Positions 1-15,034 of a stretch of DNA of 64,000 bases are shown here, piece after piece. This DNA is from Leptospiraceae bacterium (GTDB lineage: Bacteria > Spirochaetota > Leptospiria > Leptospirales > Leptospiraceae). The translations under genes and the position numbers were made by a program. The stretch lies in assembly GCA_024233865.1 (NCBI GenBank), contig JACKPA010000012.1, forward strand, positions 128,001-192,000. Direction: 5' to 3'. The first letter of the stretch is position 1. Each line of letters begins with the position of its first letter. The notes below the pieces were generated by a model that was not told where the DNA came from, searched no databases, and was given only the letters and a program-made list of their open reading frames with translations.

Positions 1-2168
1 TTGCGAATGTCACTTAGTTCGTTTTCTATCTTTTTTAAAGTATTTCCGATAAGTAATCCTTCCGGTTTTTCCAAATGAACAAGTGTATTTGCTGCTACAA
101 AGTTTGTTTCCAAGTTTGGTAAAGGAACAATTCCATAGTTGTCTTTTTTGTCTTTATTTGCTTTTTGATCTATAATCAAAGAAATGAAAAATCGAAGTTT
201 GGAAATCTCAATGGCTATAGGCTGAATATCAACTCCATAAATACAGTTTTTGATTAAAAAGAGCTTTCTTCCATAGTCTTGGTAGTTGTTCTTTTCATTA
301 AAGGCTTCTTCAATTTCTTTTTTAACGTGTTTACGAATATTCACATCCGGAATTTTCTCTGCTTGATTCAATTGCAATCTTTTCCATTCTTCGTTTTTTG
401 GATCGAGTTTGTGAAGAACATAAACAAGCTTATGCAAAATTCCCATAGGAAAAGCACCGGATCCACAAGCAGGGTCTAAAATCTTAATTTTGTGTATGGC
501 TTGGATCAGATTTTGAGCTTCTTCTACTGTGAAAAAATGCTCTTCCGTTGAATGAGAAAGTAAATGACGAAGTTTGGAAACCCCACCCAAACCCTCCCCA
601 GAGGGGCAGGGGGTGAGGTATTCTTTAAAGTAAGCAATCAAACTTTCATCTACCATATAATTCACAATTTCTCGTGGAGTATAAAACGAACCAGTTTGTT
701 TGCGGGCTGTCGTTTTCGTTTCAGGGTTATAAGAAGCCAACAAATTTTCAAAAACCTTGCCTAATAATTCAGGATCAAGAGCGATCTCTTCTTCGAGTGG
801 TGTATTTTCGGTAACGGTGAATTTGTATTGTTTCAAGATACGAATGATTCCTTTCACCTTTTCTTTTTTATGCTTCGTGTCTCCGTATATTTTACTGAAA
901 TCTATTTCCCTCTCTTTACCAAAAAATAAGTCATCCGGAATATTAATTTGTTTTTGGGTTTTTGGATGATCGCTAAAACAATCTATACGAACTTCATTAG
1001 AGCCTTTTCCGGTTTCATCTTTACGTTTATCTAAACATTCAAACAAACCTCCGTTTAAAAAAGGTATTTCCCTAAAAATATTTAGTACGCTTTCGGAATC
1101 TTTGAATTCTTTCTCGTATCTGTATAGGCTATGTACCATATAATCTTTGTCTTTTACCTCAATTCCATTCGTAACACGAAACCTTCTTTCCAAATCCATT
1201 TCAGTATTTAAAGTAGCAAAAAATAGATTTTGTAAAATGGCTTTGTAATAAACAGTGGATGATCCTTCTTTTTCCATAAAATGGTTTAATGTCTTTTTCA
1301 AGAATTCTTCCCTAAACAAATCTTCCGATATAAATTCTCTACCACCTTCCAAACGCTTTTCTTTCAGAAACCAAACAAAAATAAGCCTTGTTAGCATACG
1401 AATTACGCTTAGTGAATTCCGAATGTCTCTATTTTCATGTACATCTTTTGGAAATTCTGCAATATCAATTGCCCAAAAATACCAATTCGATATGTCTTTG
1501 TAAAATCTCTTGTTTAACTCTTTGGTATCTAATACTTTCTGCCAAGCATTGTGAAAATCAACAAAGTTACTCAAACTGTATTTGGCTTTAATACAATCCA
1601 AAGATAAATCATACAGAATTTCAATGTGTCCTCTGTGTGGATTTTCAACTTGAATGTCTTTGATCAAAGTCACTTTTTCCAAAACGTCTTTGCTCACGTC
1701 TAGCTTGTTTGGTCTCCTATCAATAATTGCCAGAGTCAACACACTTCCATAACGAAAGAGTATCATAACCGGAGCCATAAAGAGTTTGTTTACGGCTCTT
1801 GTAATTTGAGATAACTTTGTTTTGGAATAAATATCTCCCTTCAATTGAATACCTATAAATATATAGGACTCATACTCATTGGGATTGTATTTTTTGTTTT
1901 CAAAAAGGGAATGACTTTCCAAAACTTCATCTTTGGTATATTGAAAGAGAATATTTGCTTCTTTCCACTCTCCAAAACAGGCTTTTTCTTCCGGAATATT
2001 CCTTTCTCTGAATAGTTCTTTAAAATCATTTTTTGTATAGTCTGATGTTTTATCGCTTTTGTAACCAAGAGTCTCAAAAAAACTCACCCCCAACCCCTCT
2101 CCAAAGGAGAGGGGAGAAGCGAGGAATTGTTTGATTTGTTCTTTTTTTTCTGTTTCAGTTGTTTTCAT
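1..2168 (-). CDS. Type IIG restriction-modification enzyme, copy 1 (N-terminal nuclease region plus N6-adenine methyltransferase domain). 5' partial-in-window: the start codon is at 2168 and the reading frame stays open to position 1, so the gene continues beyond the window
   Basis: Minus-strand translation from the ATG at 2166-2168 is uninterrupted to the window edge. It contains GSFYTPREIVNYMV (methyltransferase motif X) and ILDPACGSGAFP (motif I). It is the colinear in-frame version of the fragmented ORFs at 5225-7628. It is missing from the ORF track, probably because it has no in-window stop. Confidence 0.7.
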   Translation of the reverse strand, partial: MKTTETEKKEQIKQFLASPLSFGEGLGVSFFETLGYKSDKTSDYTKNDFKELFRERNIPEEKACFGEWKEANILFQYTKDEVLESHSLFENKKYNPNEYESYIFIGIQLKGDIYSKTKLSQITRAVNKLFMAPVMILFRYGSVLTLAIIDRRPNKLDVSKDVLEKVTLIKDIQVENPHRGHIEILYDLSLDCIKAKYSLSNFVDFHNAWQKVLDTKELNKRFYKDISNWYFWAIDIAEFPKDVHENRDIRNSLSVIRMLTRLIFVWFLKEKRLEGGREFISEDLFREEFLKKTLNHFMEKEGSSTVYYKAILQNLFFATLNTEMDLERRFRVTNGIEVKDKDYMVHSLYRYEKEFKDSESVLNIFREIPFLNGGLFECLDKRKDETGKGSNEVRIDCFSDHPKTQKQINIPDDLFFGKEREIDFSKIYGDTKHKKEKVKGIIRILKQYKFTVTENTPLEEEIALDPELLGKVFENLLASYNPETKTTARKQTGSFYTPREIVNYMVDESLIAYFKEYLTPCPSGEGLGGVSKLRHLLSHSTEEHFFTVEEAQNLIQAIHKIKILDPACGSGAFPMGILHKLVYVLHKLDPKNEEWKRLQLNQAEKIPDVNIRKHVKKEIEEAFNEKNNYQDYGRKLFLIKNCIYGVDIQPIAIEISKLRFFISLIIDQKANKDKKDNYGIVPLPNLETNFVAANTLVHLEKPEGLLIGNTLKKIENELSDIR

Positions 2169-2190: not shown

Positions 2191-2511
2191 CTATGTCTCG
2201 ATAAAAATTTCTTCAGGCACCTGAGCTTGTAGAAATGGCCATATAAGTAGCCGAGCATAAGTTTTAGTGAAAGTAATGATTCTTTTCTCTTGTAACCATC
2301 TTTCATATTGCTCGTTATCCCACAAAACAGAATCCAATAAATGCCTTAATTTGTCTTTTCGGTTCAATTCCTTATTAGAGGAACCAATGATTGAATTTTC
2401 TTCAATAACCAGAATAACGTTATGGATACCTGGACGAAAAGAGAACGAATTTATTTTTAATATAACTGTTCCATCTTCTTGAATTTTAGCTGTTGTCTCT
2501 ATACTTTTCAT
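2191..2511 (-). CDS. hypothetical protein (106 aa)
   Basis: Single ORF. Its 3' end and downstream sequence (gayrtagagaataagacatttaa) are shared with the target-recognition-domain remnant at 3170-3180. Confidence 0.35.
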   Translation of the reverse strand: MKSIETTAKIQEDGTVILKINSFSFRPGIHNVILVIEENSIIGSSNKELNRKDKLRHLLDSVLWDNEQYERWLQEKRIITFTKTYARLLIWPFLQAQVPEEIFIET

Positions 2512-2567
2512 TGTTTACTCCTTAGCATTTACTCTATTTTAATTTCCCTTTTTCTATTTTGGAAATG

Positions 2568-2855
2568 TCAGCCAACAACTCCCTGAACCTGTCGAAGGAC
2601 TTTCTGCTCTTTTTTATTGAGTATTTCTTTATACAATACAACTGGATCCAAATCTACCTTATTGGGCCAACAAACAGTTCCTAATTCTTGATTTACTCTT
2701 ACTAGCTTAAAATAGTTCCATTCTTTTAATGGCTCAAAAACGCCTTCATAAGTGATCATTTTTTCTAAATTGATTACTCCAGTAATACCGTTTTCAAACT
2801 TCAAGTAAAGTAATGATTTTTTTCTTGGTTTTACATATACTATATCTACTAACAT
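2568..2855 (-). CDS. DUF2442-family protein
   Basis: The sequence ...LVDIVYVKPRKK...LKFENGITGVINL... is typical of the DUF2442 partner of DUF4160. The ATG at 2855 lies just downstream of the DUF4160 stop. The longer tracked ORF (to 2948) overlaps the upstream gene. Confidence 0.55.
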   Translation of the reverse strand: MLVDIVYVKPRKKSLLYLKFENGITGVINLEKMITYEGVFEPLKEWNYFKLVRVNQELGTVCWPNKVDLDPVVLYKEILNKKEQKVLRQVQGVVG

Positions 2856-2857
2856 TA

Positions 2858-3118
2858 TTACACCAACGGTTCTATATATTTTAACTCTTTCTTTTGTTTT
2901 GCAAATTCCCAATCTTCTTTTAACTCGTCTTGATGCAAAGATGCCCATTCAACAACAAGCCCTCTTACTCTAGAAGGTAGTTCACCTTCTAGAATTGTCA
3001 ATGTCTCAATAGATACCATAGCTTTATAATTTCCATATCTAACATGAAAATGTGGTGGGTTATGGTCGTTATGAAACATCGCGATAATTATACCTAAAAA
3101 CCTTGATATTTCTGGCAC
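2858..3118 (-). CDS. DUF4160-family protein
   Basis: MFHNDHNPPHFHVRYG is the hallmark of DUF4160. It sits in the classic gene pair with DUF2442. Confidence 0.65.
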   Translation of the reverse strand: MPEISRFLGIIIAMFHNDHNPPHFHVRYGNYKAMVSIETLTILEGELPSRVRGLVVEWASLHQDELKEDWEFAKQKKELKYIEPLV

Positions 3119-3169
3119 TATGATTTTTCTCCTTTTATTCTATCTTAAATGTCTTATTCTCTACATCTT

Positions 3170-3300
3170 GATAATAATTATGGATTGTCGTTTTTTCTAC
3201 AATGCTCATCCTTGGAAAGCTGTCCAATACTGTTAGCATCTCTTCTTCTGTAAGTACATACAGTTGGAAAACTATTGCGTCGATTTTTGGATAACAAATC
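3170..3300 (-). pseudogene. Remnant of the 3' end of a type IIG target-recognition domain
   Basis: About 120 nt match 4015-4135 closely (DAMVFHLYGLTEEEMLTVLDSFPRMSIVEKTTIHNYY...). There is no upstream ORF continuation. Confidence 0.5.
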
Positions 3301-3301
3301 A

Positions 3302-3721
3302 TCATAGGTATTTTATAAATATATTGTTTAATGCCATTCTTTTTTTAGTTCGATAAATATAATAATCAGAATCAATTGTAATGATATTCGTAATTCCATA
3401 AATTTCTGAAATTACAATTAAAGAACCATCTGCAATATCCATTGGTAAATCTTCGTATTTTTTTGCTAATTCGATTAACCTGTTATAATAGTCTTGTTTA
3501 AATTCTAGTATGTTTAGACCACCATCTAGTATAAAACTCATTAAATTAATTTGAGCCTTAGTCGATTTTCTTAATAGATGTCCAACTTCCGTAATTACAA
3601 AATTTGTAGTAAATAATTCACCACTGAAATTTTTTAGAAAATCTATGATATTTTCATGATACTTATCGCTAGCATCAAATAATGCATATAATGGTCCGGA
3701 ATCAATGAGAGTTCTTTTCAT
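3302..3721 (-). CDS. vapC: PIN-domain toxin (VapC-like)
   Basis: The MKRTLIDSGPLYALFD start, acidic PIN residues and 139-aa size fit VapC. The gene is 20-nt overlapped by an upstream small gene. Confidence 0.7.
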   Translation of the reverse strand: MKRTLIDSGPLYALFDASDKYHENIIDFLKNFSGELFTTNFVITEVGHLLRKSTKAQINLMSFILDGGLNILEFKQDYYNRLIELAKKYEDLPMDIADGSLIVISEIYGITNIITIDSDYYIYRTKKRMALNNIFIKYL

Positions 3722-3971
3722 ATAATATGTTCTCTAAGATTAGTTTTCTTTTTTGAGAAATGTCTTTTTTTCCACTTGAATAGACTCCAAAATATTTTTT
3801 TCCTATTTCATAAGGAGTTTTCTTATTCTTTTGATAGTAAGAATCAATATACCCTTTTAATACTATTTTAATAAGTTCTGATTCTGAAATATTTTCCTCT
3901 TTTGAAATTTTGAACAACCCTTCTTCAATTTCTTGAGTTAGATTTATGGTTAGTGCTTTTTGTCTGCTCAT
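3702..3971 (-). CDS. vapB: Ribbon-helix-helix antitoxin (VapB/CopG-like)
   Basis: The 89-aa protein has an N-terminal LTINLTQEIEEGL...SESELIKIVL ribbon-helix-helix pattern and lies immediately upstream of the PIN gene. Confidence 0.55.
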   Translation of the reverse strand: MSRQKALTINLTQEIEEGLFKISKEENISESELIKIVLKGYIDSYYQKNKKTPYEIGKKYFGVYSSGKKDISQKRKLILENILYEKNSH

Positions 3972-3976
3972 TTCAT

Positions 3977-6900
3977 TTATCCTACCTTAAAAGTTTTGTT
4001 TTGTATGCCTCGATAATAATTATGGATTGTCGTTTTTTCTACGATGCTCATTCTCGGAAAACTGTCCAAGACTGTTAGCATCTCTTCTTCTGTAAGTCCA
4101 TACAGATGGAACACCATTGCATCGATCTGTGCTTCCCATTTGGAGACCTCACCCCCGTCCCCTCTCCAATCTGGAGAGGGGGTTTGCTTTGCAACAAGTA
4201 TCTTGTCTACGAGTGCGATCAGGGGTTTTTGTAATCCTGGATTGTCGATTGGTGCTTTGGGAATTGGAAGTTTGTTTACATAATATTTATCAAAGTCCAT
4301 TGTTCGAATAGCACGACAAAAAACAAACCAGTAATAATACCAAGATGCAAATTTTGAATTTAAGATACCAAGGATATATTCTTCTTTAACACCTTTATTT
4401 GTAATAAATGTATTCATTACCGTATCCAATGTTAAAACTCCAATTTTTTATCTAAGCTTGCCATTATAATAATACTATCTTGTACGTGAGCAACTATTCT
4501 TTGAGAAATAATTTTAGTCTTTCTTTTTCTTAGTTCATCAACTTTGGAAATTAAGTCTGCTTTTGGTAATTTTTATCTTATCAATTTCACCATGAATATC
4601 ATATCTACCAATGTTTTTTCCTCGTAAAATATCTTCACCTTTGGTTGTTAATTTGCTTTGGTAAGGCAATCCTCTGCAAGTATTGGAGATTTCACCCAAA
4701 GGAATAAAGCAGTTTTTTAATTTTTTAATATGTTCAAAGATTTGGAATTAACGTAAATCGGTATTATATCATAAGCATTTATAAACTTATTATCTATTTG
4801 TTCATTATGAACTTTAATGGATTCATTCCAATAATCTCCAACGGTCATTTTATAAGATGCTTGTTTATCTTTGATTGTAACTATTATAACTTGTTCCAAA
4901 AGAACATTTTCAAACGCTTTGGTTGTATCAATTACAATACTGAGAACATTATCCTCTGCAATTAGATTACGAGTGTTTTTCCATCCTTCTGAAAATGCTA
5001 TAGACTTTGGAATAATATAACTCAAAATCCCTTTCCGTTTTAATGTTACCAAGCCAAATTCCATAAAAAAGGAAGCAGAATCTTTTTTTGTCTATCATAG
5101 AATTTATAAGATTTTTCGATATTTTTAAGATATTCTTTTAAATCAGCTCCATACGGCGGATTTCCTATCACAACATCAAAGCCACCTTTCCCCAGCCCCC
5201 CGTGAACGGGGGGAGTTACTTGCGTTAGTTACTCCCCAGCTCGGGGGAAGGGGGGGAAATCCCAAACATGTGTTCAGGGTCGAACCAATCCGCAGATTTG
5301 AGTCTATCATAAGGATTCCATTCGGCAATTTTGCTAGCTGAATCTTTAGAAAACTGATTTTTTAGAAGAAATTCAGAAATTTCTTTTGCGTTTCTCTTTA
5401 TCTTTCTCTCGCAGTTCTTTTTTTTCTCTTTATAAGTCCTTGCATCAAAGTGTTGTTTGCGAATGTCACTTAGTTGATTTTCCAACTTCTTTTTTAAAGT
5501 ATCACCAATTAACAAACCTTCCGGTTTTTCCAAATGAACAAGTGTATTTGCTGCTACAAAGTTTGTTTCCAAGTTTGGTAAAGGAACAATTCCATAGTTG
5601 TCTTTTTTGTCTTTATTTGCTTTTTGATCTATAATCAAAGAAATGAAAAATCGAAGTTTGGAAATCTCAATGGCTATAGGCTGAATATCAACTCCATAAA
5701 TACAGTTCTTGATTAAAAATAGCTTTCTACCATAATCTTGGTAGTTGTTCTTTTCATTAAAAGCTTCTTCAATTTCTTTTTTAACGTGTTTACGAATACT
5801 CACATCAGGAATTTTCTCTGCCTGATTCAATTGCAATCTTTTCCATTCTTCATTTTTTGGATCAAGTTTATGAAGAACATAAACAAGCTTATGCAAAATT
5901 CCCATAGGAAAAGCTCCAGATCCACAAGCAGGATCGAGTATCTTGATTTTGTGTATAGCTTGGATCAGATTTTGAACTTCTTCTACTGTGAAAAAATGCT
6001 CTTCCGCTGAATGAGAAAGTAAATGACGAAGTTTGGAAACCCCACCCAAACCCCTCCCAGAGGGGCAGGGGTGAGGTATTCTTTAAAGTAAGCAATCAAA
6101 CTTTCATCTACCATATAATTCACAATTTCTCGTGGAGTATAAAACGAACCAGTTTGTTTGCGGGCTGTCGTTTTCGTTTCAGGGTTATAAGAAGCCAACA
6201 AATTTTCAAAAACCTTGCCTAATAATTCAGGATCAAGAGCGATCTCTTCTTCGAGTGGTGTATTTTCTGTAACGGTGAATTTGTATTGTTTCAAGATACG
6301 AATGATTCCTTTCACCTTTTTTTTTTTATGCTTCGTGTCTCCGTATATTTTACTGAAATCTATTTCCCTCTCTTTACCAAAAAATAAGTCATCCGGAATA
6401 TTAATTTGTTTTTGGGTTTTGGATGATCGCTAAAACAATCTATACGAACTTCATTAGAGCCTTTTCCGGTTTCATCTTTACGTTTATCTAAACATTCAAA
6501 CAAACCTCCGTTTAAAAAAGGTATTTCCCTAAAAATATTTAGTACGCTTTCGGAATCTTTGAATTTTTCTCGTATCTGTATAGGCTATGTACCATATAAT
6601 CTTTGTCTTTTACCTCAATTCCATTCGTAACACGAAACCTTCTTTCCAAATCCATTTCAGTATTTAAAGTAGCAAAAATAGATTTTGTAAAATGGCTTTG
6701 TAATAAACAGTGGATGATCCTTCTTTTTTCCATAAAATGGTTTTAATGTCTTTTTCAAAATTCTTCCCTAAACAAATCTTCCGATATAAATTCTCTACCA
6801 CCTTCCAAACGCTTTTTTTCTTTCAGAAACCAAACAAAATAAGCCTTGTTAGCATACGAATTACGCTTAGTGAATTCTGAATGTCTCTATTTTCATGTAC

Positions 6901-7628
6901 ATCTTTTTGAAATTCTGCAATATCAATTGCCCAAAAATACCAATTCGATATGTCTTTGTAAAATCTCTTGTTTAACTCTCTTTGGTATCTAATACTTTCT
7001 GCCAAGCATTGTGAAAATCAACAAAGTTACTCAAACTGTATTTGGCTTTAATACAATCCAAAGATAAATCATACAGAATTTCAATGTGTCCTCTGTGTGG
7101 ATTTTCAACTTGAATGTCTTTGATCAAAGTCACTTTTTCCAAAACGTCTTTGCTCACGTCTAGCTTGTTTGGTCTCCTATCAATAATTGCCAGAGTCAAC
7201 ACACTTCCATAACGAAAGAGTATCATAACCGGAGCCATAAAGAGTTTGTTTACGGCTCTTGTAATTTGAGATAACTTTGTTTTGGAATAAATATCTCCCT
7301 TCAATTGAATACCTATAAATATATAGGACTCATACTCATTGGGATTGTATTTCTTGTTTTCAAAAAGGGAATGACTTTCCAAAACTTCATCTTTGGTATA
7401 TTGAAAGAGAATATTTGCTTCTTTCCACTCTCCAAAACAGGCTTTTTCTTCCGGAATATTCTTTTCTCTGAATAGTTCTTTAAAATCATTTTTTGTATAA
7501 TCGGGTGTTTTATCGCTTTTGTAACCAAGAGTCTCAAAAAACCTCACCCCCAACCCCTCTCCAAAGGAGAGGGGAGAAGCGAGGAATTGTTTGATTTGCT
7601 CTTTTTTTTCTGTTTCAGTTGTTTTCAT
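3977..7628 (-). pseudogene. Type IIG restriction-modification enzyme, copy 2, disrupted by multiple frameshifts. Fragments: 6972-7628 nuclease N-terminus; 6823-7005, 6539-6733, 5983-6315, 5225-6049 methyltransferase motifs X and I; 5100-5225 NPPY motif IV; 4717-5064; 3977-4429 TaqI_C-like target-recognition domain
   Basis: The fragments are colinear, on one strand and in shifting frames. Together they reconstruct one ~1200-aa protein: GSFYTPREI, DPACGSGAF, GNPPYGADLKEY, IIPKSIAFSEGW, GILNSKFASWYY. Frame breaks coincide with homopolymer or GC-hairpin tracts (e.g. T11 at ~6320, A8 at ~5085, G7 at ~5250). 5457-7628 is about 97% identical to 1-2168. Confidence 0.7.
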
Positions 7629-7878
7629 GTTTTTGTCTCAAAATCAATTTGCATTCTTGTGGCAAATTGTTATACAGTAAATTTAAATTATGTGTTTTGG
7701 AAAATGGGATATTTTGATAGATAAAAATTGACTTAATTGCTTTCTCGGTTGACTGTTGGCAGAGATAACATACATTTCTTGGGAATCGCTCCACCGTTTC
7801 GGAAAGTGCAATTGCACTATTCAAGTCTTCTTCGGCGTATTTAAGCCATGTTTTCCATTCCGGTATATTCTCGTTCAT
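7615..7878 (-). CDS. HEPN-domain protein (toxin-like partner of the nucleotidyltransferase)
   Basis: 87 aa with a ...STEKAIKS...KTHNLNLL... HEPN-like pattern. It overlaps the upstream nucleotidyltransferase gene by 38 nt. Confidence 0.55.
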   Translation of the reverse strand: MNENIPEWKTWLKYAEEDLNSAIALSETVERFPRNVCYLCQQSTEKAIKSIFIYQNIPFSKTHNLNLLYNNLPQECKLILRQKHENN

Positions 7879-8209
7879 ATATTAATTTACCCTCCTTTAA
7901 AGCATGATAATATATAGACCATTTCTTTTGTTTATATTTAGATTCTTCGTCTTGACTGATAACCAAAATATCAGTTGCTATAGGAAAGTTTTCTAATAAC
8001 TTCCGAATCTGAATAGCTAATTTCCTCCTATGCTCAACTTCTTTAAATTCTATTAGAATATCTAAATCACTATTTTCATTTTCCGTACCTTTGGCATAAG
8101 AGCCAAATATAAAGATTTTTTCCGGTTTGAATGTTGGAATGATTCTTTTTATTGTTTCATCCTTAAGATAACTGAATTCATATCTTGTTGTTTTGTTTTC
8201 TGCGATCAT
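7841..8209 (-). CDS. Minimal nucleotidyltransferase (MNT) domain protein
   Basis: IFIFGSYAKGTENENSDLDILIEF is the canonical GS...DxD nucleotidyltransferase motif. Confidence 0.7.
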   Translation of the reverse strand: MIAENKTTRYEFSYLKDETIKRIIPTFKPEKIFIFGSYAKGTENENSDLDILIEFKEVEHRRKLAIQIRKLLENFPIATDILVISQDEESKYKQKKWSIYYHALKEGKLIYEREYTGMENMA

Positions 8210-8249
8210 AGCATTCTCCTTTATTAATTATACCATACTTTTATCAAAA

Positions 8250-11200
8250 TCATTTTATAATCAACCAGGTTACAAGCTCAAAATCGTCTACATCTTTTAT
8301 TTGTTCCTTCTTAGATGGAAGGACAGAGTGCCTGCTTGTTGTTAGGGCTAACAGATTCTTTTTCTGAAAGACTCCTACCGTTTCTTCAATGGACTTCACA
8401 AGTAACTTATTGTAAAAATCCATATTTTTTCCGTTATCGGTTTCTTTATTAAATTGGTTACAAAGTTTTTCAATTGGAGATGTGATCCCAACACACAAAG
8501 CTCTATAGATGTCTAAAATCTGCTTGGCATGAGTAAACTTGTAACGAACATCTCCATTTTCTTGAACATAAACAAGATAAAACGGTTGTAAGGGATTCAC
8601 AGATTCAGAACTTGCAGTTCCTACTTTATGCCTTAAGCAAAATATAACTCCAGGAGATACAGTCTTATTTTGTTTATTTTCTATCTCAACTTCTTTTGGG
8701 ACAAGAGAATACAAACCAAAAGGAGTTTCCCTAAGCATTTTTTCATTGGATTGCAAATAGTTTAGTAAATCCACTCGAAAGTCATCCAAAGTAAACTCAC
8801 TAAAAGAAACGTTATCAGTCAAATCATCCAAATCCAGAATTTCTTTTTGTAGCCTCTTTAGCTGTTCATCTCTATAACTCAATTCATCACTTACCATATT
8901 TTCAATTTCTTCGACATTTAAAATATTTTCCTCATTTGTAGCAGTAATGTCTACCAATGCCATTCTAGCTTCCACTCTATGCTTTAACTTGATGTAATTG
9001 TCCAAATCTTCTGTGGGCCAGAAATTAACCAGGTGAACCGAATTATTTTTACTACCTAAACGATCAATCCTACCAAACCTTTGGATAATACGAACAGGAT
9101 TCCAATGAATATCATAATTTATCAGGTAATCACAGTCTTGGAGGTTTTGTCCTTCAGAAATACAATCTGTTGCAAATAGTACATCAATTTCTTCTATAGG
9201 CATTTTATCCAGTTTTTCACGATGTTTTGAAATGGGCGAAAAATTGATTAAAATTTCTTCATATCTAGAACTACCTAAAGTTGTTTTGTTTACACCACTC
9301 CCCAAAACCAAAGCCGTATGAACACCCAACTCTTTGTAAATATGATCTTTCAATTGCTCATAAATGTATATAGCCGTATCAGCATAAGCAGTAAATACTA
9401 AAACTTTTTTATTCGGCTTTCCATCATTATTTTTATTAGGATTTTTTATTTTTTCTGTTATCAAATCTTTCAATTTATGAAGTTTGGCATCTCTAATGGG
9501 AGTAATAGCTTCTGCCTGGTTATACAGAGAAACCAATTGCTCCCTGTCTTTTTCCAAATCTTGAAGCCATTCGTCTACTTTTAAGTCATCCAATTTATAC
9601 ACCAGTTTTTCTCCAATTTCAAATGCTTGTTTCAAATCTTCGTCTTCCATTTCTTCATTGGTTACTATTTCATCTGTTGCATAGCTTGTATTTTTATTAT
9701 CTCTAAATTTCTGATATTCTCTTATTTTATCTTCCAAGGTATCTATCTTTTTAATTGTTCTGTCCAGAGTGATTTTAAAAGAAAAAATAGAACTTTCTAT
9801 TCGTTTCATAAAGTTGGTTTTCATCATTCCTATCAAAAAATATTCCCTTTGACTTTGTGAAAAATTTTTCACCATTCTGGAAACCTTCGTCTCATAGAGC
9901 TGAATTTTCTCTTCTTTTAGATAAGCAAAAGGGTTAAACAAACTCAGTTTATACTTTGTAATTTCTTCATTTACTTTATCATAAGATACAAAGCGATTAT
10001 TCATATCAATCCTAGTTGTAACGGATATAGGTTTGGCTCTTTTTGGGAATTTACCAATTATTTCTAAACTTTCTTTATAATACCTTTCGATATGCTTTCT
10101 TGACCTTGCTATTGTTAATTGGTCTAGCATCTTAAAAAATGAGGATGGTAGTTTTTCCAAAAGTTCTAATGTTCTCCTTTCGGCATTTTTTTTGTGGTCT
10201 GCCCACATAGTAAAGACTTTTTGAGAAGTTATTAAAGTTTGGTTTATGCTTTGGATTCCAATTGTAAATAGATAAGCAGAATCATCTCCCGCAGTTATAA
10301 AGTAAATTTGATTTCTTAAATCTTGCAAGTGAACATTCACAGGAGTAGCAGACAAAAGTAATACCTTTGTTTTCCTTCCTTTTTGAATCACATCTTCCAT
10401 TAATTTTTCATAACGGCTTTTTTTGATTACATTTCCTTCTTCGTCTTTTTTTCCTTTGGTATTATTCCTAAAATTATGCGATTCGTCAATTACTACCAAA
10501 TCAAAGTTTTCCCAATTCAATGTCCTTAAATCAATATCTCCTTGCTTTCCGGAATCTCTGCCAAGATCGGTATGATTCAAAACCATATAACCAAATTTGT
10601 CTTCCAAAAAAGGATTCAATATAGAATTGTTAGCTGCCTGGTAAACTGTCCAATTGTCCCGTAGCTTTTTAGGACAAAGAACAAGAACACGATCATTTCT
10701 TAATTCGTAGTATTTTATAATTGCCAAGGCTTCAAAAGTTTTTCCCAAACCTACGCTATCGGCGATAATGCAACCGTTGTATTGTTCTATTTTATTAATG
10801 GCTGATTTTACACCATCCTTTTGGAATTCGTATAAGGATTTCCATATAAGAGAATCAAAGAAGTGGCTTTTTTCTTCTAATAACTCTAACTTACTTTTGT
10901 CTTGTAAGTATTTCTGAAAGATGTGATATAGAGTTTTGTAATAAATAAACTCAGGAGAATAATCCAAATACAGTTGCTTAAGATATTCAATTACTTCTTC
11001 TTTTACGTCCTCCACTTCCTCACTATTCCAAAGCTCATTAAACCAGCTAAGCAAATCCAATGTATCACGCTTGGAATCTATAATCAGATTAAGTTCAATA
11101 TTAGGATTAGAGCCAAATCCAATACCTCTATTTGTAAAATTGGAGCTACCCATTATAGCATGGGATAACCCACTTGGTTCATGAATATGATATAGTTTCC

Positions 11201-11582
11201 CATGCAGAAAATTACTTTTTTTAACGGATTTGATTTCTACTTTTTTAGCTATCCATTCCTCACAATCTCTTGCTATTTTACTTTGCTCTAGACGGTTGGA
11301 AAGAGATAAACCATGGTCTTCAATATCAAAAGATTTTTTATCAGTTTTGTCTGGGTCTAATGATTTGGTAAACCTGGGTTCTCCAAACAAAAATCTCAAT
11401 TCGGAAATGCTCTCAAGTCTATCTTTCAATTGATAATAGGCGTAAATTGTAAAAAAGGCGGAAACGAAAGATAATTTGGATTCTTCTACAATCGTTTTTT
11501 CTAAGAATTCCCCTACACTTCCATTTTTTCGATTATCCCTTATGTTAGAAAAACTGATATTTTGCTGGTTAAATTTTTGCAA
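8250..11582 (-). CDS. Phospholipase-D-family nuclease fused to an SNF2-family ATPase/helicase (1110 aa); putative defense protein
   Basis: The N-terminus HGKLYHIHEPSGLSHAIMGSSNFTNRG is an HxK...GSxN PLD motif. The SNF2 N-domain carries CIIADSVGLGKTFEALAII (Walker A) and DLVVIDESHNFRN (DEAH-like). Helicase_C carries LVFTAYADTA...FATDCISEGQNLQDCDYLINYDIHWNPVRIIQRFGRIDRLGS (motifs IV-VI). Confidence 0.8.
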   Translation of the reverse strand: MQKFNQQNISFSNIRDNRKNGSVGEFLEKTIVEESKLSFVSAFFTIYAYYQLKDRLESISELRFLFGEPRFTKSLDPDKTDKKSFDIEDHGLSLSNRLEQSKIARDCEEWIAKKVEIKSVKKSNFLHGKLYHIHEPSGLSHAIMGSSNFTNRGIGFGSNPNIELNLIIDSKRDTLDLLSWFNELWNSEEVEDVKEEVIEYLKQLYLDYSPEFIYYKTLYHIFQKYLQDKSKLELLEEKSHFFDSLIWKSLYEFQKDGVKSAINKIEQYNGCIIADSVGLGKTFEALAIIKYYELRNDRVLVLCPKKLRDNWTVYQAANNSILNPFLEDKFGYMVLNHTDLGRDSGKQGDIDLRTLNWENFDLVVIDESHNFRNNTKGKKDEEGNVIKKSRYEKLMEDVIQKGRKTKVLLLSATPVNVHLQDLRNQIYFITAGDDSAYLFTIGIQSINQTLITSQKVFTMWADHKKNAERRTLELLEKLPSSFFKMLDQLTIARSRKHIERYYKESLEIIGKFPKRAKPISVTTRIDMNNRFVSYDKVNEEITKYKLSLFNPFAYLKEEKIQLYETKVSRMVKNFSQSQREYFLIGMMKTNFMKRIESSIFSFKITLDRTIKKIDTLEDKIREYQKFRDNKNTSYATDEIVTNEEMEDEDLKQAFEIGEKLVYKLDDLKVDEWLQDLEKDREQLVSLYNQAEAITPIRDAKLHKLKDLITEKIKNPNKNNDGKPNKKVLVFTAYADTAIYIYEQLKDHIYKELGVHTALVLGSGVNKTTLGSSRYEEILINFSPISKHREKLDKMPIEEIDVLFATDCISEGQNLQDCDYLINYDIHWNPVRIIQRFGRIDRLGSKNNSVHLVNFWPTEDLDNYIKLKHRVEARMALVDITATNEENILNVEEIENMVSDELSYRDEQLKRLQKEILDLDDLTDNVSFSEFTLDDFRVDLLNYLQSNEKMLRETPFGLYSLVPKEVEIENKQNKTVSPGVIFCLRHKVGTASSESVNPLQPFYLVYVQENGDVRYKFTHAKQILDIYRALCVGITSPIEKLCNQFNKETDNGKNMDFYNKLLVKSIEETVGVFQKKNLLALTTSRHSVLPSKKEQIKDVDDFELVTWLIIK

Positions 11583-11669
11583 ACTAAGATCCTGTAAAAG
11601 TAGTATATATATATCTTTTTCGGGTTATTATTAAAGAAATATTAGTATTTTACACATTTCCGAAAAACA

Positions 11670-12329
11670 TCAAAATCTATACAATTCATCAGGAAATCCG
11701 GTAGAATCAAAGCATTTACTTTCCAGTAGGTTAAAAGAAACAACCGTAAAATGTGGTTTTAAGGCTTCCATATAGAAATGTAAAGGTCTTTGGTAGGCGT
11801 ACGGGTCGTTAAACCCAAGTTCTTTTTTCATGCGATCATAGTCCTTGTCGGTTGGAACTGAAAAATACAAATACTTTGTAATTCGAGAAAGTTTTTGAAA
11901 CATATTTTCTATATCTCTTCCTATGTATTGAAATACGGAATTACATATGGTGAAATCCAGTGGATTTTGTTCTATATTCAAAATAGTAAAGTCTTGGATT
12001 GAGGAGTGTATTATAGAAATATCCAAGCCACTAATCCACCTCGATTTGCTGAGTTTGTCTACCATTTCCCAGGAAGGCTCTATGGCATACACCTTATCCG
12101 GTTTTAGCAATTTCACAAAGTCTTCTAAAAGGTTTGCTTTTCCAAAACCAAAATCTGCCATAGAATACACCTCTATCTCACAAAGCGTAAATAGGGAAGC
12201 AATATAACGGGCGTGGTCTTTGGAATTATATGTTCCGTCAATGTCTATTTCATCTCGATAAACGGTTTTCCAGTATTTTTTATCAAAGGCAAGACCATTG
12301 GCAGCTGATGTAAGAACGGAATGTTTCAC
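11670..12329 (-). CDS. Class I SAM-dependent methyltransferase
   Basis: MADFGFGKANLL fits a glycine-rich SAM-binding motif I. The 4-nt overlap (ATGA) with the upstream membrane-protein gene suggests translational coupling. Confidence 0.55.
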   Translation of the reverse strand: MKHSVLTSAANGLAFDKKYWKTVYRDEIDIDGTYNSKDHARYIASLFTLCEIEVYSMADFGFGKANLLEDFVKLLKPDKVYAIEPSWEMVDKLSKSRWISGLDISIIHSSIQDFTILNIEQNPLDFTICNSVFQYIGRDIENMFQKLSRITKYLYFSVPTDKDYDRMKKELGFNDPYAYQRPLHFYMEALKPHFTVVSFNLLESKCFDSTGFPDELYRF

Positions 12330-13651
12330 ACTTCGTTTACAACAATAGATAGGGATATAATATCGGTCATAATTTTTTTCATTTTATCATAAGGTGTTGG
12401 CTGATAAAAGTCCTGAATGGATTTTAAAAGGTCTTCTTTTACAGCAGAATATTTGTCGCTATTGTAGATTCTTTGCATAAATTCTTTATTTACTAGTACG
12501 CTATTGGTATCTAATGAGATAAACAAGGTGTCTTTTGTTTTGAATCCTTTGTTGATCGAACTGGCTGTTTCTTGATTTAAGCCATTTACAATCAAAAAGT
12601 CATCTTTTTGCATTTCGGATATGTGGTTGAATTCAATCTTTTCTCCATAAAAAAAGTATACAATATCGCTAAAAGTTGCTGAGCCATAAACCTTTTGTTC
12701 AGGTTTCATAACTTTGGTTCGTAAGGAGGTGAGTAACCTGCCTTGTTGTATCATCTTTTCCGTATTCAAAGAACCTTTGTGGTTGTATGAAAAATAAACG
12801 GAAATTCCGATTAATACAATCACAACAAAAAGGGACTTGCGGTTTGTTAATTCTTTCTCCTTTTCCAGTAGAATATGCGTAAAAAGAATCAACAAAAAAA
12901 TCGGAACAAACTGAATTAAAATATTTCTTACCTTAATAAATAAAAATTGAAACGAATTGCTTCCAAAAAATTCAAAAGAACCTAGTACTACAATTAATGA
13001 GACCATAAAACCACCATAAGCCAATAAGACAGTTAAAGGAATGTTTTTCTTTTTATAAAATACTGTTATTCTGGTTTGTCTCATTTCTTTGATGCAATAT
13101 ACTGTGATGTAAACGGAAAATACGACTAAAAACATAACAAAATTCGACAAGAAGCCTAAGATGGTCAGTATACTCATTACAATCAAATCTATAAACGTTT
13201 CCAATCTGGAATAGATATAAAGAACTTGAATTATAATAAGACATAACAATTCACCGCTATATTGAAAGGGAAGGTTTACAGATAAAGGTGAAAATGCGAT
13301 TAAGTATAATAAAAAATAGTGATTTAGCTTCCAGATTTCCTTACGGAAAATTAACATACACAAATGTAAAAATACACTGTATAAAATAGAAAGATAGATT
13401 TTATAGGCTAAAAGATAATTCAAACCCGTTATATTTTTCCAATAATATGTAGTAATTGCCGGTAGAGGCTCTCCGTACCTTCGAGCTTGTCCTTCTTCCA
13501 TAATGGATTTTAAATTGGCGAGGTCAAAATACGCATTTGCGTGTCTTGGCTCTCCACGAAAATTGTATAAAGTACTCAAAACTACGCATAAAAACAATAT
13601 GGAAAGAATAATATTCAAAGGACTAACGGGTTGGCTTTTTTTATATATCAT
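12326..13651 (-). CDS. Polytopic integral membrane protein (~10 predicted TM helices), function unknown
   Basis: 441 aa dominated by hydrophobic helices, in an operon with the methyltransferase. Confidence 0.45.
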   Translation of the reverse strand: MIYKKSQPVSPLNIILSILFLCVVLSTLYNFRGEPRHANAYFDLANLKSIMEEGQARRYGEPLPAITTYYWKNITGLNYLLAYKIYLSILYSVFLHLCMLIFRKEIWKLNHYFLLYLIAFSPLSVNLPFQYSGELLCLIIIQVLYIYSRLETFIDLIVMSILTILGFLSNFVMFLVVFSVYITVYCIKEMRQTRITVFYKKKNIPLTVLLAYGGFMVSLIVVLGSFEFFGSNSFQFLFIKVRNILIQFVPIFLLILFTHILLEKEKELTNRKSLFVVIVLIGISVYFSYNHKGSLNTEKMIQQGRLLTSLRTKVMKPEQKVYGSATFSDIVYFFYGEKIEFNHISEMQKDDFLIVNGLNQETASSINKGFKTKDTLFISLDTNSVLVNKEFMQRIYNSDKYSAVKEDLLKSIQDFYQPTPYDKMKKIMTDIISLSIVVNEV

Positions 13652-13978
13652 ACTACCTATCCATAAAAACTACCTAATTTTATAGTGACATTCTTTTTGG
13701 TTATTTTTTTGTGTATAGTAAATTTATATGGATTATCAACTTATTTTAGGACTTGATGTTATCATTGAATCTTTTTTTCTAATATACCTCTTAATTCCAT
13801 GATTCTAAAGCCAATGCTTTGGAAAAAGAAAAATCCCTAAGTGTAACAACTTAGTTTTATCCTTTTTTGACTGAAGTAATCTTTTTTTCTCTACTAAAAA
13901 TAGTATCAATATGATAAATGCTTTAAACCATAAATATGTAAAAAAAAATAGGTTTATAAGGTGTTATTGGAGTATTGA

Positions 13979-15034
13979 ATGAAAAAGTGGAAAGTAGGTA
14001 TATTGGGTGCTACAGGTTCTGTTGGGCAAAGGTTTGTTCAATTGTTGGAAAACCATGAGTTTTTTGAAGTTACACATCTCGCAGCCTCAGACAAAAGCGC
14101 TGGAAATGTTTATGGTGATGTTATGGCTTCTAGATGGAAGGTTTCCAATAACATACCGGAATATGCAAAAAAAATTAAAGTTAGTAAATGCTCTCCTTCG
14201 GATACACCTGGGGTTAATCTCGTTTTTTCCGGTTTGGATAGCAGTATAGCCGGAGAAGTTGAGACGGAATACGCAAAAGCAGGGATTATGGTTATTTCCA
14301 ATTCCAAAAATCATCGAAATGATACGGATGTACCGATTCTTTCTGCGGAAGTAAATCCGGGGCATTTGGAAATTTTAAACTACCAAGCAACACCGGGTAA
14401 AATTATTACAAATTCAAACTGTACAATTATGGGAGTTACAATCACCCTTAAACCGATTTTTGAAAAATTTGGAATTGAATCCGTTGTTTTATTTTCGATG
14501 CAAGCTATTTCTGGAGCCGGTTATCCTGGGGTTCCCTCGTTAGATATTTTAGGAAATGTTGTTCCTCACATAGGCGGAGAAGAGGAAAAAGCTGAATTTG
14601 AACCTCTAAAATGCCTTGGAAAATTGGAAAACGGTCAAATTGTGCCGGCTGATTTTAAAATATCAGCTCATTGCAACAGGGTACCTGTTATAGACGGTCA
14701 TACTGTTTGTGTATCAATAAAACTAAAAAAACAAGCCACAATAGAAGAAATCAAAAAGGTGTGGAATGAGTTTGAAGGTGAACCACAAAAACTAAAGTTA
14801 CCTTCTGCTCCTGCAAAAGTGATAGATTATAGAGAAGAAATAGACAGACCACAACCAAGGCTTGATTTAATGAGTGGAAATGGAATGGCTACCACAGTTG
14901 GTAGATTACGAAAAGATACTGTATTGGATTTTAAATACGTGCTCTTAAGCCACAATACTATTCGGGGGGCGGCTGGAGCAGCAATCCTAAATGCTGAATT
15001 GATTTACAAAAAAGGATTAAATAAGGCAGGATAA
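13979..15034 (+). CDS. asd: Aspartate-semialdehyde dehydrogenase
   Basis: [14 protein letters not shown] Rossmann motif, active-site region [14 protein letters not shown], 351 aa. Confidence 0.8.

Follow-up and report, generated by a model that had tools for sequence, protein, structure and literature searches.

The gene studied here lies at positions 8250 to 11582 of a 64-kb stretch of DNA, referred to below as the window, from a Leptospiraceae metagenome-assembled genome (MAG) (assembly GCA_024233865.1, contig JACKPA010000012.1, positions 128,001 to 192,000). It is an open reading frame (ORF) of 1110 codons on the minus strand, without interruption and with a TTG start. Its product, which is identical to an NCBI protein from a Leptospiraceae MAG (P0001), joins a phospholipase D (PLD)-family nuclease domain with a single HKD motif to a SNF2-type helicase. 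Two copies of a DNA methylase gene, termed A and B, lie downstream on the same strand. The main features, each with the evidence for it, are as follows.

8250..11582, minus strand: HKD(PLD)-SNF2 helicase-nuclease, intact, the proposed restriction subunit (ORF, Pfam, PADLOC PDLC01075, homologs)
11013..11582, minus strand: N-terminal PLD-family nuclease domain of the helicase, amino acids (aa) 1-190, with a single HxK...GSSN (H127, K129, N148) (Pfam PLDc_2 and RE_NgoFVII, motif positions)
9003..10847, minus strand: SNF2 ATPase core of the helicase, aa 246-860, with a long insertion separating the lobes (Pfam, motifs, conservation)
8253..9002, minus strand: C-terminal ~250 aa of the helicase, conserved
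3977..7628, minus strand: methylase copy A, consisting of DUF4391, an Eco57I/MmeI-like N6-adenine methyltransferase (NPPY), and a TaqI_C specificity domain, disrupted (ORF fragments, Pfam, our own DUF4391 hidden Markov model [HMM], tblastn frame map)
1..2168, minus strand: methylase copy B, open without interruption for its first 722 codons, beyond which the left window edge cuts it off (frame reading, direct repeat, tblastn)

Domains and motifs of the helicase-nuclease

A preliminary description of the locus had proposed that the 1110-aa protein fuses an N-terminal PLD nuclease to a complete SNF2 core, and the ORF, its Pfam domains, and its conserved motifs all bear this out. In the nuclease domain, PLDc_2 was matched at aa 96 to 185 (E 1.1e-9), and RE_NgoFVII gave a weak Pfam match under its cut-off (E 1.2e-4). 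The HxK followed by GSxN that is required of the PLD superfamily is present as H127-G-K129 and G145-S-S-N148. SNF2-rel_dom/ResIII was matched at aa 249 to 415 and Helicase_C at aa 708 to 843 (E 1e-13), and the two RecA-like lobes carry SNF2 motifs I (Walker A, GLGKT at 278), II (DESH at 366), and VI (QRFGRIDR at 834). Across 76 aligned full-length homologs, the HxK and GSSN residues are at least 80% conserved and the helicase motifs at least 95%. Judged by these residues, the PLD-SNF2 fusion looks catalytically competent.

Classification and distribution of the helicase family

The best PADLOC model for the helicase was PDLC01075, "C3a139, HKD+Snf2" (E 1.6e-121, 405 bits), which aligned protein residues 95 to 1108 with positions 82 to 946 of a 948-position profile. 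A guess that the label "C3a139" denotes an accessory cluster of class-3 UG/Abi reverse transcriptases found no support in the corresponding paper, which names no Snf2, HKD, or cluster 139. The PADLOC models for DrmD, BrxH, HmaA, DpdE, and ZorD matched the helicase core in part only, and no NCBIfam model reached its cut-off for the helicase, with "phospholipD_antiphage" scoring 147.5 bits against a cut-off of 1100. Genome annotations name the family only as "helicase-related protein," and PGAP lists its partner as "DUF4391 domain-containing protein."

Homologs form at least 8000 clusters at 90% identity. Full-length homologs with 57 to 59% identity occur in Cyanobacteria, Gemmatimonadota, Chloroflexota, Desulfobacterota, and other phyla, and the spread over phyla is patchy, with 44 to 59% identity between them. 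In a one-genome-per-species collection, a relative is encoded in at least 596 stretches (596 of 600 among the matches listed). As only 5 of 50,697 phage genome records carry a homolog, this is not a typical phage gene. Conservation of gene neighborhoods had been named in the preliminary description as a check on its proposal, and the neighborhoods indeed place the homologs in mobile and defense contexts. These contexts include 128 plasmids (among them plasmids of Escherichia coli, Listeria, Enterococcus, and Acinetobacter), Tn7-like cargo, and neighboring genes for TIR-TPR proteins, OLD-like ATPases, and YhcG. On a plasmid of Acinetobacter gerneri (L088, 1268-13071), the helicase-DUF4391-methylase cassette immediately follows genes for TnsA, a Mu-type transposase, TniB, and TniQ, and appears to be the cargo of a Tn7-like transposon.

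Association of the helicase with DUF4391 proteins

ORFs were called and clustered in 84 related loci, and an HMM of our own was built for DUF4391. Among the 72 loci with at least 1.5 kb of sequence downstream of the helicase, 69 carry a DUF4391-bearing ORF there on the same strand. The window has the same arrangement, with a downstream ORF at 6972 to 7628 that matches the DUF4391 HMM (E 5.4e-62). Together with the frequent overlap of stop and start codons, this pairing supports the two-component restriction-like system that the preliminary description had put forward as one possibility, while so nearly obligate a partner speaks against its other suggestion, a solitary anti-phage helicase-nuclease.

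In the main clade, to which the window belongs, DUF4391 forms the N terminus of a protein of 1150 to 1350 aa that also contains Eco57I/N6_Mtase and TaqI_C. The gap between helicase and methylase is at most 100 bp in 28 of the 43 loci with a full-length fused methylase, and a 4-bp stop/start overlap is common. Genes are inserted between the two in 15 of these 43 loci, including YhcG/DUF1016, DUF4062-HATPase_c_4-Fic_C, and Bro-N; genes of this kind are common hitch-hikers in type I restriction-modification (R-M) operons, and their presence is in keeping with a restriction-like system. In the window, MNT (minimal nucleotidyltransferase) and HEPN genes occupy this place. Directly after the DUF4391-methylase, an SMC_N/AAA_23 ATPase of ~550 aa is encoded in 13 of 36 loci (e.g., L008:17369-18997). 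This ATPase gave weak PADLOC matches to mad3 and LmuB. Two of the DUF4391-methylases (L053:13630-18339 and L027:14468-19069) carry additional domains, a C-terminal DUF3800 in one and an IS200-like Y1 transposase domain inside the methylase in the other.

In a distant clade (44 to 48% identity), found in Firmicutes and Methanobrevibacter and on many plasmids, DUF4391 stands alone as a protein of ~250 aa, and genes for type III Mod and Res come after it. The helicase was matched in 15 Bacillus (B. cereus) plasmid records, and the neighborhood was read in one of these, plasmid pMRY14-0057_1 (L085, 1-17864). A contiguous, co-directional run of genes there encodes an AAA ATPase, DrmA, DUF1998 (DrmB), the HKD-SNF2 protein, DUF4391, a DNA methylase, and a type III Res-like helicase and is possibly a DISARM hybrid. 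In two loci, the gene next downstream of the helicase joins DUF4391 to an entire sigma-70 factor (regions 1.2 to 4), namely in Microcoleus vaginatus (L004:13309-20670) and in a Gastranaerophilales MAG (L049:3735-6194), and no methylase domain was detected in either fusion. These sigma-70 proteins scored 472 bits with NCBIfam RpoD and 325 and 249 bits, under the cut-off, with the model of the anti-phage sigma factor MzaA; the Microcoleus protein, 2453 aa in length, also has an AAA_22 region. As the recognition module varies between a fused methylase, type III Mod/Res, and sigma-70 while DUF4391 stays, the invariant unit is the helicase together with DUF4391.

A profile of the DUF4391 region matched 2475 cluster representatives at 50% identity, 1726 of them at E <= 1e-10. 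Among the 150 matches listed, DUF4391 is N-terminal in nearly all, and most of the proteins are 1150 to 1370 aa long. An AlphaFold2 model of the first 330 residues of the partner was usable (predicted local distance difference test score 80, predicted template-modeling score 0.76). Polar positions with at least 90% conservation across both clades are Y36 and R152, and RR-x4-D-x2-K-x3-E recurs in the alignment rows that were inspected by eye; no canonical PD-(D/E)xK signature was found in the DUF4391 region. The PADLOC type IIG models align to the partner only from about profile position 497 on, that is, over the methylase and specificity parts, and no MmeI-type nuclease domain was matched. The neighbor had been described as a type IIG nuclease-methyltransferase fusion, which is correct as far as the gamma-class N6-adenine methylase and its specificity domain are concerned; its N terminus, however, is DUF4391, and no nuclease domain is detectable there. 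The gene linkage suggests that DUF4391 couples the two proteins. A full-text literature search for DUF4391 returned only irrelevant mentions, a table entry and an apparent slip for DUF7941.

State of the two methylase copies

Copy A is split over many ORFs, and at least seven frame changes were needed for it to track an intact homolog in tblastn. Its pieces comprise DUF4391 at 6972 to 7628, Eco57I/MmeI_Mtase with NPPYG at 5225 to 6049, and TaqI_C at 3977 to 4429. The fragments thus retain both the gamma-class N6-adenine methylase with its NPPY motif and the specificity domain, but not in a single uninterrupted frame. Copy B stays open until the window edge interrupts it, and it followed the intact homolog in one frame across query aa 1 to 697. 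A SAM-binding motif is present in the methylase of the window. The preliminary description had treated the neighbor as a gene adjacent to the helicase and as the only methyltransferase nearby, and this does not hold in full: genes for a minimal nucleotidyltransferase (MNT) and a HEPN protein lie between the helicase and the disrupted copy A, copy B extends leftward from 2168, and a Methyltransf_25 gene lies at 11670 to 12329.

The 5' two-thirds of the methylase gene form a direct repeat (1-2170 and 5457-7630), the two parts of which are 98% alike and 5.46 kb apart. Across the 2.1 kb of homology, copies A and B differ by ~42 substitutions and by 10 indel events, of which 9 are frameshifting. 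Mononucleotide runs are the site of 7 of the 10 events in copy A, so that some of these indels may be assembly errors. The substitutions are clustered at 5700 to 6055 with a spacing that is often a multiple of three, and true decay is favored for this reason; we lean toward it rather than toward unpolished assembly error as the source of the frameshifts in copy A. No frameshift is present in the helicase gene, although it contains 43 homopolymer runs of at least 5 nt, and the damage is therefore local.

The locus in this MAG is partly decayed or rearranged, with an MNT/HEPN pair and further small toxin-antitoxin-like cassettes as insertions, and as it looks partly decayed, the instance in the window is of lower value than the family. 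It could even be an inactive relic, in which the helicase ORF has remained open and the system is dead through loss of its methylase. The frameshifting indels of copy A relative to copy B and its frame changes relative to the intact homolog point in this direction, as does the apparent truncation of the HEPN gene. In addition, no full-length copy B product was present among the database proteins listed, where a 218-aa fragment of copy A was found (P0121). However, the helicase is free of frameshifts despite its many homopolymer runs and its motifs are all intact, copy B is open through all of its 722 visible codons, and the indels in mononucleotide runs could in part be errors of assembly. We regard a dead locus as possible but do not favor it, and copy B, if complete, is likely the working partner.

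A proposed two-part restriction system

We propose, with moderate confidence, that the helicase is the R-like subunit of a two-part, ATP-dependent, R-M-like system of the type I/III kind, in which a DUF4391-bearing protein is the obligate partner. The helicase would probably be the cutting half of a widespread restriction-like system directed against phages. Building on the observed domain content, motif conservation, gene linkage, and state of the copies, the following mechanism can be envisaged. The gamma-class N6-adenine methylase, with its TaqI_C-type specificity domain, would read a short DNA motif and methylate the host copies. On unmethylated foreign DNA, the N-terminal DUF4391 would recruit or license the helicase, whose SNF2 motor would translocate along double-stranded DNA with ATP. 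The single-HKD PLD domain would then cut when two enzymes meet or dimerize, the logic being that of restriction enzymes of types I, ISP, and III. A PLD domain with a single HKD motif forms an active site only as a dimer, as in Nuc and BfiI, and this favors cleavage upon collision or dimerization. From the arrangement of domains and genes we thus infer physical interaction via DUF4391, cleavage coupled to translocation, and anti-phage activity.

If this is a working restriction system, a common barrier to the entry of phages and plasmids has been missed in defense censuses or mislabeled there as "type IIG" or "type III" R-M. A solution that combines a PLD nuclease with a SNF2 motor would be added to the mechanisms of ATP-dependent restriction, and DUF4391 would be given a function.

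Several points weigh against this proposal. The literature search found no experimental study of the HKD-SNF2/DUF4391 pairing. Loci of the distant clade additionally encode a complete type III Res, which could itself serve as restriction subunit, and the HKD-SNF2 protein may be an accessory there. The SMC_N/AAA_23 ATPase that follows the methylase in some loci may be a third component, and the minimal system may accordingly have three parts. As for the window itself, its system may be non-functional, the methylase beside the helicase being broken and copy B being visible only in part.

A broader view, which we offer tentatively, is that the helicase and DUF4391 form a portable restriction engine, in which DUF4391 docks the ATP-driven nuclease to interchangeable modules such as a gamma-methylase, type III Mod/Res, DrmA/DrmB, or sigma-70. 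If this is true, the sigma-70 form implies methylation-independent targeting, for example, by promoter recognition or association with RNA polymerase.

The strongest rival to a two-part restriction system is that helicase and DUF4391 together act as a portable add-on effector deployed on varied sensors, serving as a second-line or back-up nuclease and possibly acting independently of methylation. This would account for the variation of the third element, which may be a gamma-methylase, type III Mod plus Res, sigma-70 without a methylase, or DrmA/DrmB neighbors, and loci with type III Res already possess a restriction subunit. In the clade of the window, however, the conserved core contains no other helicase or nuclease, and the covalent fusion of DUF4391 to the methylase is the simplest sign of one enzyme complex. 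On balance, an add-on role seems rather unlikely.

Comparison with known systems

In type III and type ISP/type I systems (EcoP15I, LlaGI), a specificity-bearing methylase marks self, and an SF2 ATPase-nuclease loads at unmodified sites and uses ATP to cut. The pair described here likewise consists of a methylase and an SF2 ATPase-nuclease, and the cassette of the distant clade contains type III Mod and Res. It differs in having a SNF2 motor, a PLD nuclease instead of PD-(D/E)xK, a gamma-class Eco57I-like methylase, and presumed coupling via DUF4391. CglI and NgoAVII combine a PLD-family R protein with an SF2 helicase-like N protein and have a B3-like specificity domain and a C5 methylase. They share with the present family a PLD nuclease that works with an ATP-hydrolyzing helicase-like protein, the two being separate in CglI and NgoAVII and fused here.

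Class 1 DISARM, ARMADA, BREX type 3, and Hma all combine an SNF2-type helicase and a PglX-like methylase with further core genes (PMC12458937, PMC11232893), and protection against phages has been demonstrated by experiment for Hma and ARMADA (PMC11232893, PMC12458937). The helicase-DUF4391-methylase dyad looks like a minimal version of this theme. Hma/Type-1 BREX-related (BR) systems and ARMADA resemble it in their dyad of an SNF2-family (or BrxHII-like) helicase and a PglX/Eco57I-like methylase, to which they add further ATPases, but the nuclease of HmaA is a C-terminal PD-(D/E)xK domain and ARMADA depends on a helicase of the YprA family. The PADLOC HmaA model gave only a partial match to the helicase (E 1.4e-25).

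The locus was initially put forward as a candidate compact DISARM-like module, in which fused DrmC (PLD) and DrmD (SNF2) would act with a DrmMI-like methylase and without DrmA or DrmB. Class 1 DISARM does unite a PLD nuclease with a helicase of the SNF2 type and an Eco57I/PglX-like adenine methylase, and a DrmC-like PLD-family nuclease is present here as the fused N-terminal domain. DrmD models match the C-terminal half of the helicase in part (PADLOC E 4.5e-43, NCBIfam E 8.3e-52), DrmMI models match the methylase weakly, and the B. cereus plasmid cassette stands directly after DrmA and the DUF1998 gene in the same direction. However, the DrmD equivalog NF038317 scored 176.6 bits against a cut-off of 610 and NF038318 95.7 against 950, the best model for the helicase is that of a separate family (PDLC01075), and the methylase scored far better with type IIG/Eco57I models than with DrmMI. 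Moreover, PLD domain and helicase are one protein here, DUF4391 is part of the methylase, and no YprA helicase/DUF1998 pair accompanies them. The defining core is absent as well. In agreement with the preliminary description, which had noted no DrmA/DrmB-like genes in the window, tblastn with the B. cereus DrmA and DrmB proteins gave no match in the 64-kb window or the 84 related loci; the B. cereus plasmid cassette (L085) is the exception. DUF1998 was absent from the Pfam-annotated loci L001-L004 and DrmA from the gene maps, and neither DrmA nor DrmB was present in the plasmid cassettes of E. coli, Listeria, Providencia, and Acinetobacter. A DISARM-like module is therefore improbable, and we do not retain the name.

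Type-2 BR systems, whose defining genes encode a DUF499 ATPase and DUF3780, are R-M-like and have an HKD-Swi2/Snf2 helicase as the proposed effector together with an N6-methylase (PMC12839542). The helicase of the window has the same architecture, with HKD N-terminal to the Swi2/Snf2 helicase, and is paired with an N6-methylase of the PglX/Eco57I type, as a remnant of such a system would be. The DUF499 AAA+ ATPase and DUF3780 are theirs, however, while DUF4391, which has not been described for BR, belongs to the present family. Neither DUF499 nor DUF3780 was found in the window ORFs scanned, in the Pfam-annotated loci L001-L004, or among the recurrent neighbor clusters of 80 loci, where the recurrent third gene encodes the SMC_N/AAA_23 ATPase; the genome to the left of the window lay outside these scans. 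Plasmid homologs with 26 to 28% identity (Nostoc, Planktothrix) were checked for BR-type neighbors, and none were found. Descent from a Type-2 BR system is very unlikely.

The remaining alternative, a housekeeping SNF2 protein (a RapA-like transcription factor or a repair factor) that lies near defense genes by chance, hardly deserves credence: a weak NCBIfam RapA match was obtained and the closest solved structures by sequence include RapA and chromatin remodelers, but these are distant relatives in the PDB that match over the helicase motifs alone (E ~1e-7 to 1e-8), whereas the protein has a nuclease domain, is patchily distributed across phyla, is plasmid-borne, and is tightly linked to a DNA methylase.

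HKD-SNF2 fusion in R-M contexts is not new and has been known from comparative genomics since 2006-2008. The passage of PMC3417536 that cites Iyer and colleagues credits them with noting, in R-M systems of bacteria, SWI2/SNF2 ATPases to which an HKD domain is fused, and PLD-SNF coding sequences adjoin Cj0031-like methylases that vary by programmed inversion (PMC9881135).

Small genes around the helicase and between the methylase copies

Directly upstream of the helicase, the Methyltransf_25 gene (219 aa) encodes a generic SAM methyltransferase according to Pfam. It is overlapped by 4 bp by a 441-aa ORF for which no Pfam, PADLOC, or NCBIfam match was obtained; the pair (11670-13651, minus strand) ends 88 bp upstream of the helicase and is not conserved beside the helicase in other loci. 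A promoter and terminator scan of 7400 to 14000 returned a site count at chance level, and no tRNA genes were found in the 64-kb window. The other small features are as follows.

7841..8209, minus strand: MNT, between helicase and methylase (Pfam Polbeta 3.1e-14, NTP_transf_2 1.2e-13; PADLOC PDC-S09)
7615..7878, minus strand: HEPN, 87 aa, probably C-terminally truncated (Pfam HEPN profile 2-68 of 117)
2191..3971, minus strand: toxin-antitoxin-like cassettes between the methylase copies, consisting of an 89-aa ORF with PIN (3302-3971), DUF4160/DUF2442 (2568-3118), and a 106-aa ORF (2191-2511) (Pfam, ORFs)
3134..3289, minus strand: remnant of a methylase 3' end with 85% identity to 3976-4131, accompanied by a shorter relic at 2175-2209 (repeat search)

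The preliminary description had placed the helicase among toxin-antitoxin and HEPN/MNT genes. MNT, HEPN, PIN, and DUF4160/DUF2442 were all recognized by Pfam; the MNT is complete, but the HEPN beside it is not, as its 87 aa cover only a part of the profile and the translation ends just after KTHNL. This end lies within ~15 nt of position ~7630, where the homology between copies A and B starts, which suggests that the junction near ~7630 is a recombination junction that truncated the HEPN gene.

Between the methylase copies, the small ORFs at 2191 to 3971 match PIN (gene at 3302-3721), DUF4160, DUF2442, or no Pfam family. The toxin-antitoxin-like cassettes are flanked by three related methylase 3' ends (2175-2209, 3134-3289, and 3976-4131), and it looks as if the cassettes were inserted successively at the 3' end of the methylase, with a copy of this end brought along or restored by every insertion.

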